Part shown: piece by piece, positions 7,662-22,486 of the stretch
How the letters are laid out: every line of letters starts with the position of its first letter
How positions within the stretch are numbered: position 1 is the stretch's first letter
Source of the DNA: Escherichia phage vB_Ec-G8
Length of the DNA: 45,511 bases
Strand: one strand, 5' to 3'
Sequence record: PQ433350.1
Translations under genes and position numbers: made by a program
The notes under the pieces: generated by a model
Databases searched by the model: none
What the model saw: the letters and a program-made list of their open reading frames with translations, nothing else
Told to the model about the DNA's origin: nothing

Positions 7662-7680
7662 ATAGCACGAATCGCTAAAG
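7662..7680 (+). promoter_or_regulatory. Boundary element copy, between dam and erf
   Basis: TAA-ATAGCACGAATCGCTAAAG; downstream hairpin and CAACAACGAACGAGG leader. Confidence 0.6.
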
Positions 7681-16969: not shown

Positions 16970-17221
16970 ATGTTGGGATTAGATTTTCAGCCTGAGCATT
17001 ATGATTTAGTACATGGGCAAAGTGGCGCAAAGTTTAGGGCGATACCTATTGCTGATTGGTTCCCTCCTGATTATGTAGATGTGAATGCAAAAACTAAAGA
17101 CGGTAAGTGGGTGCAGATTTACTACTCAGCAGCTTGCGGAAACCTGTGCATGACTGACCTTGACCAGAAGTTAACAATTAGTGCTGATTTGATTGACTAC
17201 TGGTTGAAAGAAGTTGAATGA
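16970..17221 (+). CDS. Hypothetical protein (83 aa)
   Basis: ORF with AAGGG RBS. Confidence 0.5.
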   Translation: MLGLDFQPEHYDLVHGQSGAKFRAIPIADWFPPDYVDVNAKTKDGKWVQIYYSAACGNLCMTDLDQKLTISADLIDYWLKEVE

Positions 17222-17304
17222 ATATCCTAATACTAGTAGCATTAGTCCCACTGTTTAGCTTTACTATCTTATATTTTATCGTAATGAATTAAGGAACTTA
17301 TATA

Positions 17305-18459
17305 ATGGCAACTGCAAAAATCACCAACGAACAATTGCGCGAAGAGCTGGAAAATGGCATGACCAACAAGGCCATCGCAGAGAAGTACGGAATGAACATT
17401 CGCAATGTTGAGTTGCGTCGCAGTAAATTGGCGAAGCAGGGTGAAGGTCACGGTCGTGATGTTAGTAACCTAATCCCTCAAGGGTATGCTGTAAAAGGTG
17501 TGTCTAGCTTAATTGGTGCAGATGGTGAGATTAAAGGGCAGTGGGTTAAATCAGAGGTTGACAAGGAACGCCAGCAAGAACTAATGCAAATTGTTGTTGA
17601 GGAGCTTAAGAAGGATTTACCTAAGTATAAGGCTGTCAACCACTCAGGAGAGATTACTAATTCTGAAATTCTCAACCTCTACACCATCACCGACCATCAC
17701 ATTGGGATGCTTGCCTGTTCAGAGGAGGGTGGTGATAATTATGACACCAAGATTGCTGAGAAATTAGCATTAGACTGGTTCAGTAGTGCCGTTGCAATGA
17801 GTCCGAACAGCGATGAGTGCATAATTAACTTTTTGGGGGACGAGGCTCACTACGACTCAATGAAAGCCGTAACCCCAATGAGTGGTCACATTCTTTCTGC
17901 TGATACTAGGTTATTCCGAATGATTCGAACTCAGATTAAATTAATCAAGTCAGCTGTAAGCATGTGTCTGGTTAAGCATAAAAAGGTTAAGTTATTGATT
18001 TGTGAGGGAAATCACAACCCGGTATCTTCATTGTGGTTGCGCGAGATGTTTCATGAAGTATTTATTGAAAATGAGCGAGTTGAAGTGAATCGCGAAGTCT
18101 CCCCTTATTACGCATATGAATTTGGAGACGTTATGATTGCTATGCATCACGGGCATTGCGCTAACTTCTCCCGAGTTGAATCAGCAATAATTGCCAAGTA
18201 TCGTGAGATGTTTGGTAAATCAAAGTTCGCATACACACATCTAGGCCACCTGCACCATAGAGCTGTTAAGGAAACTAGCTTGATGATTATTGAGCAGCAC
18301 CAAACGCTTGCTGCAAAAGATGAGTACTCATCCAAAGGTGGGTACTTCTCTGGGCGCAGCGCTAACGTTATTACGTACCACAAGAAGTATGGAGAAGTTA
18401 GTCGAGTGAGCATTCCCGTTGAAATGCTTCGTGACGCAAACCCTGAATCCAAATACTAA
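17305..18459 (+). CDS. Calcineurin-like metallophosphoesterase with N-terminal HTH domain
   Basis: 384 aa; ordered phosphoesterase motifs DHH (TDHHIG), GDxxxxD (GDEAHYD), GNH (EGNHN), HHGH, GHLHH; N-terminal ~50 aa HTH-like. Confidence 0.7.
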   Translation: MATAKITNEQLREELENGMTNKAIAEKYGMNIRNVELRRSKLAKQGEGHGRDVSNLIPQGYAVKGVSSLIGADGEIKGQWVKSEVDKERQQELMQIVVEELKKDLPKYKAVNHSGEITNSEILNLYTITDHHIGMLACSEEGGDNYDTKIAEKLALDWFSSAVAMSPNSDECIINFLGDEAHYDSMKAVTPMSGHILSADTRLFRMIRTQIKLIKSAVSMCLVKHKKVKLLICEGNHNPVSSLWLREMFHEVFIENERVEVNREVSPYYAYEFGDVMIAMHHGHCANFSRVESAIIAKYREMFGKSKFAYTHLGHLHHRAVKETSLMIIEQHQTLAAKDEYSSKGGYFSGRSANVITYHKKYGEVSRVSIPVEMLRDANPESKY

Positions 18460-18477
18460 TAGCACTTTTTGTCAAAA
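18459..18477 (+). promoter_or_regulatory. Boundary element variant, precedes HNH endonuclease
   Basis: ATAGCACTTTTTGTCAAAA followed by GAAA-loop hairpin and GAGAGGAG RBS. Confidence 0.5.
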
Positions 18478-18530
18478 CTATACCCGCGAAAGCGGGTATT
18501 ATTGTTTTATAGAAACGAGAGGAGATTGAA

Positions 18531-19004
18531 ATGAATTGGCACGATTATTACGAATATTCAGATGGTTATTTGTACAGAAAGAACCACAAGGTATCATCTT
18601 ATAACGGAGTTAAGGCCGGGTATGTTGATTTGAGAGGTTATGTTAGGACTAAGCTGTTTTCAAAGATGACTTTTGCCCATCGAGTAATATGGGAAATGCA
18701 TAACGGAGAAGTTCCTGAAGGTATGGAGATCGATCACATTAATGGAGTTAAGCACGATAATCGGATAGAGAATTTGAGATGTGTGGATAGGTTTATCAAC
18801 TGCAAGAACGCATCAAAGAGATCTGACAACAAGAGCGGAACAACTGGAGTTAGTTATTCAAGCTCAAAGCAAAGATGGATAGTGCAATTGCAAAAAGATG
18901 GCGTTAGGGAGTCAAAATCCTTTATGGATAAATTTGACGCAGAAGTCTACGCTAAAAATTTCTACGCAGCAAACCCAGAATTTACAGAGAGGCACGGTAA
19001 ATAG
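18531..19004 (+). CDS. HNH homing endonuclease with AP2-like DNA-binding domain
   Basis: 157 aa; HNH block (AHRVIWEMHNG...IDHINGVKHDNRIENLR); own upstream element and GAGGAG RBS. Confidence 0.85.
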   Translation: MNWHDYYEYSDGYLYRKNHKVSSYNGVKAGYVDLRGYVRTKLFSKMTFAHRVIWEMHNGEVPEGMEIDHINGVKHDNRIENLRCVDRFINCKNASKRSDNKSGTTGVSYSSSKQRWIVQLQKDGVRESKSFMDKFDAEVYAKNFYAANPEFTERHGK

Positions 19005-19020
19005 CACTTTTTGCCTAAAG
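19001..19020 (+). promoter_or_regulatory. Boundary element copy, precedes 19086 ORF
   Basis: ATAGCACTTTTTGCCTAAAG, hairpin, CATAAT, CACATCGAAACGAG leader. Confidence 0.6.
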
Positions 19021-19085
19021 CATGCCGTAGAAATGCGGCATAATCACCACATCGAAACGAGATGAAACAAACGAGGAAACACAAG

Positions 19086-19262
19086 ATGACTAAAATGATT
19101 TATTGCACCAAGAACAACTCCAAGACGCTTCCATTTACAGTTAACCAGCCGTACAATGCAGAGTATCAGGGTGACGGATATTACAAGATTTACGGAGATG
19201 ATATGACGTGGATTTTAGCACCGATTGATGGTTCGCTGGTTGAATTTATTATAGCAGACTAG
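19086..19262 (+). CDS. Hypothetical protein (58 aa)
   Basis: ATG 19086 preceded by the conserved leader (CACATCGAAACGAG...CGAGGA); followed by a strong terminator. Confidence 0.45.
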   Translation: MTKMIYCTKNNSKTLPFTVNQPYNAEYQGDGYYKIYGDDMTWILAPIDGSLVEFIIAD

Positions 19263-19287
19263 CGCATCTAAAACATAGCTTTACAAG

Positions 19288-19316
19288 TGGGGGGCCTTTT
19301 GGCTCCCCTTTTTTTT
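19288..19316 (+). terminator. Rho-independent terminator
   Basis: GGGGGGCC-tttt-GGCTCCCC + T8. Confidence 0.8.
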
Positions 19317-19393
19317 GCTTCTTTTCCGAACAGGGCTACTGTATCATGTTTACACTAACCTAAACATTGACAAATAGACAAATGGAGGATCGC

Positions 19394-19609
19394 ATGAGGG
19401 AGGTAATCAACGCCGCTACGGCGTCAACTGGAGGGGCAGCGGTAACTGGTGCGGCAACTGGTCAAATGACTATAGCAATAATCAGCCTTGTCGCTTTAAT
19501 CATTTTTGGCGCATGGGGTGCTTACTGGAAGTTTAAGGATAGCCAGGCGATTCGCAGAGCGCTTGAATCGGGAGACCTGAAAACAGCAATCAATATAAGG
19601 AGTAAGTAA
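19394..19609 (+). CDS. Holin (single TMD)
   Basis: 71 aa from ATG 19394 (GGAGG SD 5 nt upstream); one hydrophobic helix (IAIISLVALIIFGAWGAYW) with charged C-terminus; immediately upstream of the endolysin. Confidence 0.65.
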   Translation: MREVINAATASTGGAAVTGAATGQMTIAIISLVALIIFGAWGAYWKFKDSQAIRRALESGDLKTAINIRSK

Positions 19610-20095
19610 ATGAAGCAGAAGCTGCTAATTAGCGCGGCTACGACTGCGGCAATATACATCGCAGCGCCGCTTATTGAACTCGTTGAGGGTGTGGAGAACA
19701 AGCCTTACATTGATATTGCTGGGGTGAAAACCGTATGTGCCGGAATTACCGGTCCTGACGTTGTTTGGGGTAAGACTTACAGCAACAGGGAGTGCCGGAA
19801 CCTGCTGGAGAAACACATCCAGATTCATGCTAAGTATGTTCAGGATGCAGTTACCTACCCAATCGCGCAGCAGACAAGGGCAGCGTTAATCAGCTTTAGC
19901 TATAATGTTGGCGGCTCAGCGATGAGGAAGTCTACGGCTGTAAGGCTAATCAACCAGGGTAAAGTGGAGCAAGGTTGTAAGGCTTTGAGTATTTGGAATA
20001 AAGCTACCGTTAATGGCAAGAAGGTTGTGGTTAAGGGCTTGGTAAACCGCAGGAATGAGGAGATTAAGTTATGCTTAAGCGGATTGCAGCGTTAG
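19610..20095 (+). CDS. SAR endolysin (T4-lysozyme-like muramidase)
   Basis: 161 aa; weakly hydrophobic N-terminal signal-anchor-release segment followed by E...D...T catalytic arrangement (ELVEGVE...DIAGV...T); AAGGAG RBS. Confidence 0.85.
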   Translation: MKQKLLISAATTAAIYIAAPLIELVEGVENKPYIDIAGVKTVCAGITGPDVVWGKTYSNRECRNLLEKHIQIHAKYVQDAVTYPIAQQTRAALISFSYNVGGSAMRKSTAVRLINQGKVEQGCKALSIWNKATVNGKKVVVKGLVNRRNEEIKLCLSGLQR

Positions 20096-20460
20096 TAATG
20101 TGCGTAGCTTTATATGGATGTTCAGCAACATCTGCTCTGACCGGATTAATTGGAAGTAAGCCTGAAGTTACGGCTCAGGCTGGTGCCGAGAACAATAAGG
20201 TTGGTGTTGGGTTAACGAACAAGGTTGACTCCAGTAACTCCAGCGATGCCACAGTTAAGGATTCCAGCGTGGGCTCACTTGATAGTTCTAGCGGGAAAAA
20301 GACTGCTGATAATTCGATTAAGGCCTCTACAATCACTGCCGAAAAGATTGAGATTACCAATAACGACTCATCAGCGCTTCCGTGGATTGGAACAGGAGCG
20401 ATGGGTTTGCTTGTTCTGATTCTCCTTGCCTTAATCTTAAGACGTAAAAAAGCCTCCTAA
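20071..20460 (+). CDS. Unimolecular spanin (lipoprotein signal + C-terminal TMD)
   Basis: 129 aa; lipobox LYGC-S at N-terminus, Ser-rich periplasmic region, C-terminal TMD (AMGLLVLILLALIL) and basic tail; overlaps the endolysin 3' end; terminator follows. Confidence 0.8.
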   Translation: MLKRIAALVMCVALYGCSATSALTGLIGSKPEVTAQAGAENNKVGVGLTNKVDSSNSSDATVKDSSVGSLDSSSGKKTADNSIKASTITAEKIEITNNDSSALPWIGTGAMGLLVLILLALILRRKKAS

Positions 20461-20476
20461 TGGAGGCTATATTTTT
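20451..20476. terminator. Bidirectional terminator between lysis cassette and ATPase operon
   Basis: AGCCTCC-taat-GGAGGCT flanked by A6 and ATATTTTT. Confidence 0.7.
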
Positions 20477-20810
20477 AGCTAAATAACTCTTCGTCAGTCA
20501 TTGTCCCTATGTTCATCATCTCTTTTATGTACTGGCTTTCATACCCGTTAAGCGCCTCAAAGTTGAAACCAAATGGCCTCTTCAAGCTACCCTTACTAAC
20601 AAACTCACCGCACTTGCCATCAATGTATCCGGCACTCAACATCTTCGCGCAGAACTCCTTTGAGGCAGCGCTGCAAAACTCTCTATGTGACAATCCTGCC
20701 GCCTTACTGAATCTCTGAGAGTCCTTATGCTGGTAGATGAATCGCGCCAAATGCTGGCGCGTAAAGTATGAATACGACTCACAGAACTTAAATATATCGA
20801 GTATGAACAT
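20475..20810 (-). CDS. Hypothetical protein (111 aa), last gene of the ATPase operon
   Basis: GGAG RBS 8 nt upstream; start is 2 nt after the stop of the upstream micro-ORF. Confidence 0.5.
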   Translation of the reverse strand: MFILDIFKFCESYSYFTRQHLARFIYQHKDSQRFSKAAGLSHREFCSAASKEFCAKMLSAGYIDGKCGEFVSKGSLKRPFGFNFEALNGYESQYIKEMMNIGTMTDEELFS

Positions 20811-20812
20811 AT

Positions 20813-20899
20813 TCAGCTCCAGATTATGTCTAATACAAATATAAGCAGTGAGATTAAAATAAGGAACCCCAAAATTACAAGAAGTATTGTTTCAAGCAT
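20813..20899 (-). CDS. Putative 28-aa single-TMD hydrophobic peptide
   Basis: MLETILLVILGFLILISLLIFVLDIIWS; ATG 3 nt after the ATPase stop, GGGGTGA SD-like upstream; not in the ORF track (below cut-off). Confidence 0.25.
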   Translation of the reverse strand: MLETILLVILGFLILISLLIFVLDIIWS

Positions 20900-20902
20900 A
20901 AA

Positions 20903-22486
20903 TCACCCCAGCAGTCGCGGATTAATGTAAACTTTATCACCAATCAGGCACGTATAGTTTTTCTCATCAAGCATTGGCAGTAAGTGATCTTTAATCTTCG
21001 TCATCACTCCAGCCTGAGCCTCGAACGGCTTAACCTTGCGAGCAGCTTCATACAATGAGCGAATACCAACTACGCCCTTACCGTTTTTGCCTTGCTTGAT
21101 CAGAATATCAATCAGCTTATTCATCTCGGCATTGTCGCCAGCGTGACCAGCTGCGTTAGCAGATGACAAATAAGTCTTGCTCAGTTCCTGAAACATAATA
21201 ACAGCTTCTTGCATCGTATCTAGCTCGATCTCTCTAGACTTACGCGGACTCCCGCCATTTGGGTTAAACCAGTTACGCACGGTATGAAGAACCGCCGCAA
21301 TTCGGATGGCCTGCTTGTCGAATTTACCCAGGGCGCCGCGCAACATTGTGTGTGAATACTTACCGCCGTCAGCAAGGTGAGGTTCCATTTCCTGACGCGC
21401 GCGGTTGAGATACTTCATTGCTGAGTTGCTCACTGTCAACTTAACATCCTGCTCATTCATTATTTCGTGAACAAGTCGGAAGTAATCAGCCTTCAATGCG
21501 CCATCAATTGGCTCGTAAGTTGAATCTCCATTTTCATCAACGAATACACGTTCGCCAAGGAATGACTTCTCGCGGACCAAAAGGAAGCGCTCAGATACAC
21601 CGATACCACGCGCACCAGCGTTCATAATAGCGTTGATTGTCTCATCCTGCGCAATTACGGAGATACAGCCCATGGCAACGAAGCTCATGTTGTTTTCTGC
21701 ATTAGCACGCGCGATAGATACGTTACCAGCATCCCATGCTTTAAGCACAAGCTCGCTGTTCGTTTTCTTTGAGCCGTCACCATAGGTCATACCAAGCAGT
21801 GAGTTTACGCTAGTCGCCTCATCAGAGATCACTGCGAAATTACCCTGGCGATTGTTTATTCGCGCAAGACCCTCAGGTGTTGTATCTGATACCGGGAATA
21901 CGATATCACATAGTTTCTCCAGTTTTTCCTCCAGCTCTTCTTTTTCCTCAAAAAGAGAGGCCATCTCTGACGGAGATTTTTCCTGCTTCATCTCTTTTGA
22001 TAACGCAGATAGTTTGGCCATAATCTTTTTGCGCTCACGCTTTCTAACTTCATTCAGCCGCTCAGTCTCAGCGATCATTGGAGAAATCGAAAGTGAGTTG
22101 ATTGCTGATTTACCAGTCGAAGGAGGCTGGCTAGTCACGACGTAAAGAGATGTTGGCTGCTGAGTCCCGTGATACTCGACAGTGAATCGGCCCAGCATAG
22201 CAGCGGAAATACACCCAAGGAAGTGCATGTATGCTGAAGACTCTGGGAACTGAACAGAGCGGGCAATATTTGCTGACAGCTTACCAACAACATCAATGTC
22301 ATTACCTAGTGAGATTACAGGGTATTTATCATTAGCCGCATCAATCTCGACCGGAGCCTTCCAGAATGATTGAGACTGGCGATAGCCATTGGCATTAATG
22401 GCGACTCGCAGTGGCGGGAGGTTGTCAGCAGCAGCAATTGCCATAACCTGTTCAACAGATAGTTTATCTTCGTTGAAATCAAACAT
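20903..22486 (-). CDS. P-loop NTPase (Walker A/B), replication-associated ATPase-like
   Basis: 527 aa; Walker A (QPPSTGKS), Walker B (FAVISDEA); GGAGAG RBS; upstream element variant with TGaTATAAT extended -10. Confidence 0.7.
   Translation of the reverse strand: MFDFNEDKLSVEQVMAIAAADNLPPLRVAINANGYRQSQSFWKAPVEIDAANDKYPVISLGNDIDVVGKLSANIARSVQFPESSAYMHFLGCISAAMLGRFTVEYHGTQQPTSLYVVTSQPPSTGKSAINSLSISPMIAETERLNEVRKRERKKIMAKLSALSKEMKQEKSPSEMASLFEEKEELEEKLEKLCDIVFPVSDTTPEGLARINNRQGNFAVISDEATSVNSLLGMTYGDGSKKTNSELVLKAWDAGNVSIARANAENNMSFVAMGCISVIAQDETINAIMNAGARGIGVSERFLLVREKSFLGERVFVDENGDSTYEPIDGALKADYFRLVHEIMNEQDVKLTVSNSAMKYLNRARQEMEPHLADGGKYSHTMLRGALGKFDKQAIRIAAVLHTVRNWFNPNGGSPRKSREIELDTMQEAVIMFQELSKTYLSSANAAGHAGDNAEMNKLIDILIKQGKNGKGVVGIRSLYEAARKVKPFEAQAGVMTKIKDHLLPMLDEKNYTCLIGDKVYINPRLLG

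Follow-up and report, generated by a model that had tools for sequence, protein, structure and literature searches.

Among the described systems closest to the gene analyzed here, I-HmuI of the Bacillus phage SPO1 (PDB 1U3E) is encoded within an intron and carries helical and helix-turn-helix modules in its C-terminal part. The HNH-AP2 homing endonucleases of phages, cyanobacteria, and protists combine an N-terminal HNH domain with a C-terminal AP2 domain, and a reference cited in PMC10448857 credits this family as the ancestor of the plant AP2/ERF factors. An intergenic direct repeat of consensus aaATAGCACnnnTTGnTAAAA, described for phage TLS and present also in T1, Rtp, and Rogue1, is a further point of comparison; its describers leave its function between a promoter/UP element, an enhancer site, and a ‘stoperator’, and tie it to neither mobile cassettes nor hairpins (PMC11447400). 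In the 45,511-nucleotide stretch of Escherichia phage vB_Ec-G8 (PQ433350.1) that we analyzed, hereafter the window, this T1-family repeat is instead the edge of a cassette. We interpret the cassette, with good confidence from its sequence and predicted fold, as a free-standing I-HmuI-like HNH_3 homing endonuclease gene (HEG) with a C-terminal AP2-type domain, carried by a Braunvirinae (Rtp/T1-like) coliphage. Thus, it differs from I-HmuI in being free-standing and in ending in an AP2 fold, and has the domain order of the HNH-AP2 family, although it scores under the Pfam cut-off for AP2. The locus comprises the following features, in window coordinates:

17305–18459, plus strand: metallophosphoesterase or ‘DNA repair exonuclease’ gene, 384 amino acids (PHROG 704, E = 8e-141)
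18459–18477, plus strand: left T1-family direct repeat, ATAGCACTTTTTGTCAAAA, whose first 13 bp are the left boundary repeat of the cassette
18480–18499, plus strand: GAAA-loop hairpin with an 8-bp stem, ATACCCGC-GAAA-GCGGGTAT, followed by a T-rich run
18497–18502, plus strand: −10-like hexamer TATTAT, 38 nt after the repeat start, lacking a TG extension and overlapping the 3′ arm of the hairpin
18497–18510, plus strand: T-rich run TATTATTGTTTTAT, 3′ of the HEG hairpin
18519–18524, plus strand: ribosome-binding site GAGGAG, 6 nt 5′ of the HEG ATG, as read from the sequence
18531–19004, plus strand: HEG open reading frame, 157 amino acids, ATG start and a TAG stop inside the next repeat, likewise read from the sequence
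19001–19019, plus strand: right direct repeat, ATAGCACTTTTTGCCTAAA, the resident copy and the sole copy at empty sites (EC3a, and the EC3a versus L008 indel)
19022–19041, plus strand: resident hairpin, ATGCCGTA GAAA TGCGGCAT, spaced from its repeat exactly as the HEG hairpin is from the left copy
19039–19044, plus strand: −10-like CATAAT after the resident hairpin, without a T-run
19086–19262, plus strand: small DUF7244 gene (Pfam DUF7244, E = 2e-29; BEK1-1 annotation and sequence)
19289–19308, plus strand: strong predicted intrinsic terminator, GGGGGGCC TTTT GGCTCCCC then T8, which would end a small transcription unit ahead of the lysis genes
19367–20460: holin, endolysin, and spanin genes, downstream of the HEG

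The initial annotation had described a free-standing HEG between the phosphoesterase and the lysis genes, preceded by a variant boundary element and a GAAA-loop hairpin, and each of these statements holds. The position is confirmed by the coordinates and the PHROG and Pfam matches; the gene has its own ATG and GAGGAG, and its neighbors are intact both in EC3a, where the site is empty, and in L008, BEK1-1, and the window, where it is occupied. Upstream of the HEG lie the hairpin and a copy of the T1-family intergenic repeat, ATAGCACnnnTTGnTAAAA. The limits given at the time, 18459 and 19004, are the first base of that repeat and the last base of the stop codon, respectively. The DUF7244 gene and the terminator, on both of which the annotation was silent, sit between the HEG and the lysis genes; translation of DUF7244 likely begins at the ATG at 19086, since conservation in BEK1-1 does not extend to the one at 19062. 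An Rfam scan of positions 17200–19700 detected no intron family or known RNA, its only match, to the L20 leader, being at chance level (E = 0.48; 21 bits against a gathering score of 58.7).

The protein is built of three regions and a short tail. Residues 1–47 form I-HmuI-like N-terminal β-hairpins; residues 48–91 are the HNH_3 nuclease core, with D68, H69, N77, N81, N90, and N93; residues 105–147 make up an AP2-fold domain; and the C-terminal end is a conserved FTERHGK tail. The nuclease assignment draws on Pfam HNH_3 (PF13392; E = 5e-21, 74.5 bits against a cut-off of 24.8), PHROG 99 ‘HNH endonuclease’ (E = 6e-48), and a match to I-HmuI (1U3E; E = 1.2e-4) over residues 1–127; the fold agrees with a solved HNH_3, I-HmuI-like member of the His-Me finger group. 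D68, H69, N77, N81, and R83 are invariant in an alignment of 60 homologues, N90 and N93 are conserved in at least 90% of them, and the window HEG has all the catalytic Asp-His and metal-binding Asn residues. The AP2 profile PF00847 matched the window HEG at residues 105–131 under its gathering score (16.4 bits against 33.3, E = 0.011). However, over the aligned region 27 of the 60 full-length homologues match AP2 at E ≤ 0.01, the best at 4.5e-7, and several homologues carry a precomputed PF00847 annotation, many together with PF13392. An AlphaFold model (pLDDT 93.8) folds residues 107–146 into three strands and a helix, that is, a three-stranded antiparallel sheet packed on one helix and superposable on solved AP2 domains. 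Pfam, the AP2 matches of the homologues, and the model thus agree with the earlier description of a complete HNH nuclease with an AP2-like DNA-binding tail. This tail is also the most variable part of the protein. The closest database match is 89% identical, an identical sequence being absent from the databases searched, and a tblastn search of the window with the protein as query yielded no paralogue, making this the single HEG of its family there.

The cassette is 542 bp long, with one copy of ATAGCACTTTTTG at each edge, and the span at the locus in the relatives compared is ~566 bp shorter than in the window. In EC3a, the empty site consists of one repeat and a hairpin, and the comparison of EC3a with the metagenomic contig L008 gives a clean cassette indel in a background of ~92% identity. 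An uninterrupted empty junction was found in 74 phage records, Rtp and EC3a among them, and the site is occupied by an HNH gene only in BEK1-1, DTL, SCS31, and seven metagenomic contigs (L008, L010, L011, L014, L016, L018, and L023). Presence and absence among close relatives, as had been predicted, is therefore seen in 74 empty against about ten occupied junctions, and the gene is clearly not universally conserved at this site. The alleles at the site are 43–89% identical; that of DTL is interrupted by an in-frame TAA 15 codons short of the usual end, and neither record annotates it. The HNH open reading frames of SCS31 and L023, only 43–46% identical, are preceded by the same module as the window HEG (repeat, hairpin, TATTATTGTTTTAT, and ATGAATTGG). 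Homologues of 55–65% identity lie directly 3′ of the same phosphoesterase gene in Jerseyvirus, Rogunavirinae, and Klebsiella phages, with examples in the Jerseyvirus phages CTH7, S4lw, and L019, Klebsiella phage BUCT791, Shigella phage Sf12, and the T1-like L021; in the Jerseyvirus phages and BUCT791, the HEG is translationally coupled and there is no repeat at the junctions. Other accessory genes, including a PNKP-like gene and an 88-amino-acid open reading frame, are found in the same hot spot.

Both repeat copies bounding the cassette fit the TLS-type consensus and are oriented with transcription. The reported distance from repeat to start codon is ‘approximately 76’ nt (PMC11447400); here, 72 nt separate the copy at 18459 from the HEG ATG, and the copy at 19001 precedes the ATG at 19062 by 61 nt and the DUF7244 ATG at 19086 by 85 nt. 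At up to two mismatches, the window contains the 13-mer 13 times against 1.8 expected, a count reached in none of 100 shuffles, and a looser pattern gives 23 copies. A −10-like hexamer follows at about +38 in 21 of these 23 copies (offset 35–41, exactly 38 in 18), which makes the module upstream of the HEG a putative promoter, though this regularity is suggestive only. Seven other copies have a TG extension at the hexamer; that of the HEG does not. A promoter scan called no sigma-70 promoter upstream of the HEG, and we rejected a −35/−10 pair, as the 22 bp separating TATTAT from the TTG of the repeat exceed the normal −35 spacing; a promoter relying on the −10 alone, with the repeat as a distal element, would be an alternative.

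The HEG hairpin folds at −14.4 kcal/mol (z = −4.5, equalled by none of 200 shuffles) and was flagged as terminator-like in a scan. With its T-run, it looks like an intrinsic terminator against read-through from the phosphoesterase gene, which it would probably damp. Three other stem sequences at occupied loci preserve pairing by compensatory changes, with energies of −13.5 to −15.9 kcal/mol, and at occupied loci the plus strand folds at least as well as the minus strand. Hairpins were folded sequence by sequence, as a 5-nt loop in L016 and L018 moves the 5′ arm by one column in the MAFFT alignment. The resident hairpin folds at −11.7 kcal/mol (z = −3.3) and is found in HEG-less relatives too; in L010, its place is taken by an unrelated stem whose loop is GGAA.

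The gene preceding the cassette is itself unusual in its divergence. From about 17453 to its stop codon, the phosphoesterase gene is hyper-divergent between phages that are otherwise ~90% identical: against DTL and EC3a, nucleotide identity is only 30–60% inside the gene and 85–100% in the flanks. At the amino acid level, the window phosphoesterase is 98% identical to that of BEK1-1, 72% to the SETP3-type Jerseyvirus protein, and 42–49% to those of sibling Braunvirinae. The HEGs follow a different pattern. Between the window and L008, they are 89% identical beside phosphoesterases sharing only 49%, whereas between the window and BEK1-1, the phosphoesterases are 98% identical and the HEGs 75%, with AP2 tails at 49%. 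Identity falls sharply at the repeat. Judging by these identities, alleles of the two genes are combined independently of each other, the repeat being the point of the break; because the identity matrices are incongruent, we rejected a joint transfer of HEG and phosphoesterase allele. The cassette lies on a recombination boundary, next to a hypervariable DNA-repair gene, in line with the recent view that borders of phage genetic exchange are occupied by nuclease genes.

These observations bear on how far the nuclease itself explains its distribution. A cassette edged by exactly two ATAGCACTTTTTG copies, with alleles that reassort at the repeat, could arise by ordinary recombination without endonuclease action, and the gene might be a passive passenger, gained and lost through homologous or microhomology recombination between intergenic repeats in the manner of the PeSLs discussed below. 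The module shared with the distant HNH genes of SCS31 and L023 and the other accessory genes at the hot spot favor such passive exchange. We nonetheless consider it unlikely: HEGs of the same clade hold their position behind the phosphoesterase gene in the repeat-less Jerseyvirus and BUCT791 junctions, which points to site targeting by the enzyme; the catalytic residues are intact and conserved; and 13–14 bp is short for efficient homologous exchange. Alternatively, the window copy might be a relic late in the homing cycle, in frame and no longer cutting. The premature stop in DTL and the high divergence of the site's alleles are consistent with this idea, yet the full-length frame with every invariant family residue, the confident AlphaFold model, and the conserved ribosome-binding site and upstream module argue against it, and we rate it as distinctly improbable.

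A third possibility is that the protein has been domesticated, either excluding other phages by acting at unrelated sites or regulating transcription through its AP2 domain, and is not actively homing. I-TevI is known to repress its own expression. The stem AGCCGCG of the BEK1-1-type hairpin presumably resembles the GCC-box to which plant AP2/ERF domains bind, a likeness that we count in favor of this possibility. HNH proteins of such build can be co-opted for other roles, as HEG-like nucleases and DNA-binding domains have been in other systems (PMC10448857). Set against this are the absence of the HEG from at least 74 related phage records, on account of which it is dispensable, the decaying DTL copy, and the fact that the type of AP2 tail does not track that of the hairpin stem: the window and L008 agree in tail type and differ in stem, and BEK1-1 and L008 agree in stem and differ in tail. 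Autoregulation through AP2 binding to the hairpin was rejected because of this lack of co-variation, and domestication as a whole appears very improbable.

In the preferred reading, a homing endonuclease gene, the protein would most likely act as a monomer, its N-terminal β-hairpins and AP2 domain reading a long asymmetric site and its single HNH active site nicking or cutting the cassette-less DNA of co-infecting relatives. Repair from HEG-carrying genomes would then copy the cassette into the cut relative. The target is most likely in or beside the 3′ part of the phosphoesterase gene, because the HEGs of this clade always lie directly behind that gene, even in families sharing nothing else there. 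Within about 100 nt of the insertion, no fixed or consistent difference between occupied and empty sites was found; the insertion alone splits the junction of phosphoesterase 3′ end, repeat, and CCTAAAG. The repeat and the resident hairpin were also considered as targets and judged unlikely: an intact resident copy follows the HEG, about 20 further repeats lie in the window, and these retained copies would be self-cutting. Within the cassette, the HEG is preceded by a separate copy of the module that normally stands in front of genes in this phage (direct repeat, hairpin, −10-like hexamer, leader, and ribosome-binding site), and we propose for this reason that the HEG is expressed as its own small unit. 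The two 13–14-bp repeats would offer a route to precise cassette loss and may allow the cassette to reassort against different phosphoesterase alleles. The decayed copies expected of a homing cycle are represented, to judge from its reading frame, by the DTL allele. For phage engineering and therapy, it is of note that the HEG is dispensable and may bias marker inheritance in mixed infections. The locus offers a clean natural test set, in which numerous empty sites stand beside about ten occupied ones, with alleles of 43% to 89% identity, and a single copy in decay.

A more speculative reading, which we rate as rather unlikely, is that Rtp/T1-like phages have a dedicated HEG socket 3′ of the phosphoesterase gene. 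In it, interchangeable HNH-AP2 genes with fast-diversifying AP2 specificity domains would be framed on the 5′ side by a conserved module for expression (direct repeat, terminator-like hairpin of conserved structure, −10-like hexamer, leader, and ATGAATTGG) and on the 3′ side by a conserved end that encodes FTERHGK and places the stop codon in the next repeat. If so, the divergence of the phosphoesterase (40–50% at the amino acid level in genomes otherwise ~90% identical) would record an ongoing arms race, or co-conversion, between the nucleases and their target, and the direct repeats found throughout the family would also serve as joints at which gene cassettes recombine.

Compared with known systems, the nearest annotated counterpart is the ‘homing endonuclease’ of BEK1-1 (QGH77238), at the same site and 75% identical to the window HEG, with an AP2 tail of only 49% identity. 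T4-type free-standing HEGs (mobE, segG, and others) and the nuclease genes at exchange boundaries in ICP1 and other phages (PMC10448857) are likewise intergenic, sporadic, and adjacent to a conserved DNA-metabolism gene, and the window HEG similarly marks a sharp border, here between the diverged phosphoesterase gene and conserved sequence. It differs from them in its flanking gene, in the phage family, and in cassette ends formed by a family-specific repeat. As outlined in PMC2839356, the promoter-early stem-loop cassettes (PeSLs) that mediate modular shuffling in T4-type phages also have a promoter-like motif and a stem-loop at both edges of an indel, with short homologies for exchange; they are unrelated to the window cassette in sequence and phage family, and a PeSL-like recombination role of the latter would be hypothetical. 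For the T1-family direct repeat, the exact edge of a mobile cassette is a first functional context. In summary, the locus is a real but ordinary mobile cassette, by which a T1-like coliphage joins the known carriers of free-standing HNH-AP2 homing endonucleases.

A search with the region 17300-20500 retrieved 103 phage records, almost all of them from Escherichia siphophages of the Drexlerviridae/Braunvirinae; BEK1-1 (genus Veterinaerplatzvirus) matches best, at 90.5% identity and 95% query coverage. Among the matches listed, the relatives' span is ~566 bp shorter than the window's. In EC3a, the phosphoesterase stop codon is followed by one module only, TAATAGCACTTTTTGCCTAAAGAATGCCGTAGAAATGCGGCATAAT; at that place, the window, BEK1-1 and DTL carry, in order, a repeat, a new hairpin, a leader, the homing endonuclease gene (HEG), a repeat, and the resident hairpin. 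The inserted unit (the 'cassette') is 542 bp long and lies between 13-14-bp direct repeats, with ATAGCACTTTTTG present at 18459 and again at 19001, the right copy containing the HEG stop codon (GGT AAA TAG). Against a background of ~92% identity throughout, a clean cassette indel separates EC3a from the metagenomic contig L008. The presence/absence expected of a mobile gene in the initial annotation is thus borne out: a 400-nt empty-site probe found the uninterrupted junction in 74 phage records, including Rtp, versus ten occupied loci (BEK1-1, DTL, SCS31, and the metagenomic contigs L008, L010, L011, L014, L016, L018, and L023).

Features at the site in the window and its relatives
18531-19004, + strand: HEG ORF, 157 aa
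18480-18499: cassette hairpin ATACCCGC-GAAA-GCGGGTAT, -14.4 kcal/mol, z = -4.5
L002 (NC_047893) 1714-2184: HNH-AP2 gene of DTL at the same site, unannotated in both records
L022 2968-3962; L021; L016 2983-3249; L018 2971-3237; L025 2041-2514: other accessory genes at the hot spot

In DTL, an in-frame TAA at 2140-2142 interrupts the gene 15 codons before its normal end; this copy is probably a pseudogene or encodes a product shortened by 15 residues. The accessory genes at the hot spot are of three kinds: one is PNKP/HAD-like, one is a second HNH-AP2 gene in tandem, and one is an 88-aa ORF in translational coupling with the HEG.

The HEG start codon is preceded, six bases upstream, by GAGGAG. 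Residues 48-87 of its product match Pfam HNH_3 (E=5e-21), and the protein matches PHROG 99 'HNH endonuclease' (E=6e-48); the sole solved relative found by sequence is I-HmuI (1U3E; E=1.2e-4, HEG residues 1-127). The AP2 score of the window protein is below threshold (16.4 bits vs 33.3), while AP2 is matched in 27 of 60 full-length homologues, the best at 4.5e-7. An AlphaFold model built from the homologue alignment is confident (pLDDT 93.8), and its C-terminal part consists of strands 107-110, 115-122, and 125-131 followed by helix 134-146. D68, H69, N77, and N81 are invariant across the family, and N90 and N93 nearly so. Together, the HNH_3 match, the AP2 matches in homologues, the model, and the conserved residues show that the gene was correctly described as a complete HNH nuclease with an AP2-like tail. 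The exact protein is absent from a collection of 5.8 billion proteins, where the best match is 89% identical.

HEG homologues of 55-65% identity lie directly 3' of the ~380-aa phosphoesterase gene in several phage groups, namely Jerseyvirus (CTH7, S4lw, and contig L019), Klebsiella phage BUCT791, Shigella phage Sf12 (Rogunavirinae), and the T1-like contig L021. ATGA-type overlaps couple the HEG translationally to both of its neighbors in Jerseyvirus and BUCT791, and the loci examined there have no repeat. The HEG ORF therefore stays beside the phosphoesterase gene whatever its regulatory context, which is our main argument that the enzyme recognizes something in or beside that gene, its putative target.

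The phosphoesterase/'DNA repair exonuclease' gene is itself hypervariable, over 17453-18459, among otherwise ~90% identical phages. From ~17453 to its stop codon, nucleotide identity is only 30-60% among the window/BEK1-1, DTL, and EC3a types, against 85-100% in the DNA flanking this segment. The window protein is 98% identical to that of BEK1-1, 72% to the SETP3-type Jerseyvirus protein, and 42-49% to those of sibling Braunvirinae; an allele nearer to Salmonella Jerseyvirus than to other Braunvirinae suggests gene replacement across phage families. By pairwise identity, HEG and phosphoesterase alleles are unlinked: the window and L008 share 89% in the HEG versus only 49% in the phosphoesterase, and the window and BEK1-1 share 98% in the phosphoesterase versus only 75% in the HEG. 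Conservation also varies along the cassette, and in SCS31 and L023 the same upstream module fronts HNH ORFs of only 43-46% identity.

Mean pairwise nucleotide identity of cassette segments, ten loci
Upstream module: 80-87%
HNH core: 75-87%
AP2 domain: 46-62%
Last 30 nt: 89%

The repeat at the cassette edges corresponds to the T1-family direct repeat aaATAGCACnnnTTGnTAAAA published for phage TLS, where it has 21 copies, ~76 nt ahead of start codons, with further occurrences noted in T1, Rtp, and Rogue1; its describers weighed a UP-like element, an enhancer site, and a 'stoperator' as possible functions (PMC11447400). In the window, it punctuates the whole genome as ATAGCACnnnTTGnTAAA. With up to two mismatches, ATAGCACTTTTTG occurs 13 times versus 1.8 expected, and a looser pattern yields 23 copies (in the pattern scan, for instance, at 7662, 15759, 22560-, 25692, 26202, 26922, 27360, 28258, 31404, 38510, and 43699). 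The repeat usually starts at, or a few bases from, the preceding gene's stop codon, and its copies can be grouped by their middle triplet (GAA, TTT, TAA, or AAA), much like the grouping reported for TLS. A -10-like hexamer lies 35-41 nt past the repeat start in 21 of the 23 copies (exactly 38 in 18), followed by a conserved leader (CATCGAAACGA...) and a start codon ~60-85 nt past the repeat. The HEG has its own repeat copy with such a hexamer. The repeat TTG is separated from the hexamer by 22 bp, which does not fit a standard -35/-10 promoter, and a consensus scan called no promoter at the HEG upstream element; a TG extension precedes the hexamer in seven copies, and the HEG's copy lacks one. 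The claim in the initial annotation that the HEG has its own promoter can thus be upheld as reasonable, though not as proven.

The GAAA-loop hairpin noted upstream of the HEG is confirmed, and is the most stable structure among all repeat modules in the window, the resident module at 19001 being second (-11.7 kcal/mol). Across ten other occupied loci, from which seven further distinct sequences were folded, three stem versions occur (ATACCCGC/GCGGGTAT, GTAGCCGC/GCGGCTAT, and ATAGCGCC/GGCGCTAT), connected by fully compensated changes, with a G.U-compatible variant in L010. Folding energies range from -13.5 to -15.9 kcal/mol across the versions, and the sense strand folds at least as stably as the antisense strand. 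TATT(A/T)TTG(T/C)(T/C)TT(A/G)T always follows the hairpin, and a scan scored the hairpin as terminator-like; the resident hairpin (19022-19041) has no T-run. The cassette hairpin probably limits read-through from the phosphoesterase gene, and would lie outside the HEG's own mRNA if transcription starts after TATTAT. Its core, CGCGAAAGCG (18484-18495), includes GCGAAAGC, which we take to be an unusually stable DNA mini-hairpin motif; should the structure form in DNA and not in RNA, it could affect replication or recombination where the cassette ends.

Several differences were observed downstream. BEK1-1 has ATA in place of the first ATG of the DUF7244 ORF (19062); 19086, which has GAGGAAA upstream, is the likelier start. 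Some relatives have the 111-aa ORF, others a 55-aa ORF in its place, and ~120 nt at 20794-20913 are unrelated to BEK1-1, DTL, and EC3a (~20% identity). L008 and L011 have a second HNH_3 gene, absent from the window, between the lysis cassette and the DUF3987 helicase gene.

Downstream features
20451-20468: symmetric hairpin AGCCTCC TAAT GGAGGCT between the convergent spanin gene and the 111-aa ORF, reading as a terminator on both strands
20475-20810, - strand: 111-aa ORF
L008 4766-5296; L011 4982-5464: second HNH_3 gene of relatives

The simplest account of the locus is a putative free-standing HNH-AP2 homing endonuclease cassette at a recurrent hot spot, with putative nuclease activity, promoter and terminator functions, and a putative role of the repeats in recombination. 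Elements of this kind are known: PMC10448857 and its cited references cover both HNH-AP2 HEGs and nuclease genes located at exchange boundaries. Our literature search found no description of cassette edges coinciding with the T1-family repeat, nor of a conserved expression module fronting very different HNH-AP2 genes; the repeat-matched edges and the shared expression module are modest extensions of this known kind of element.
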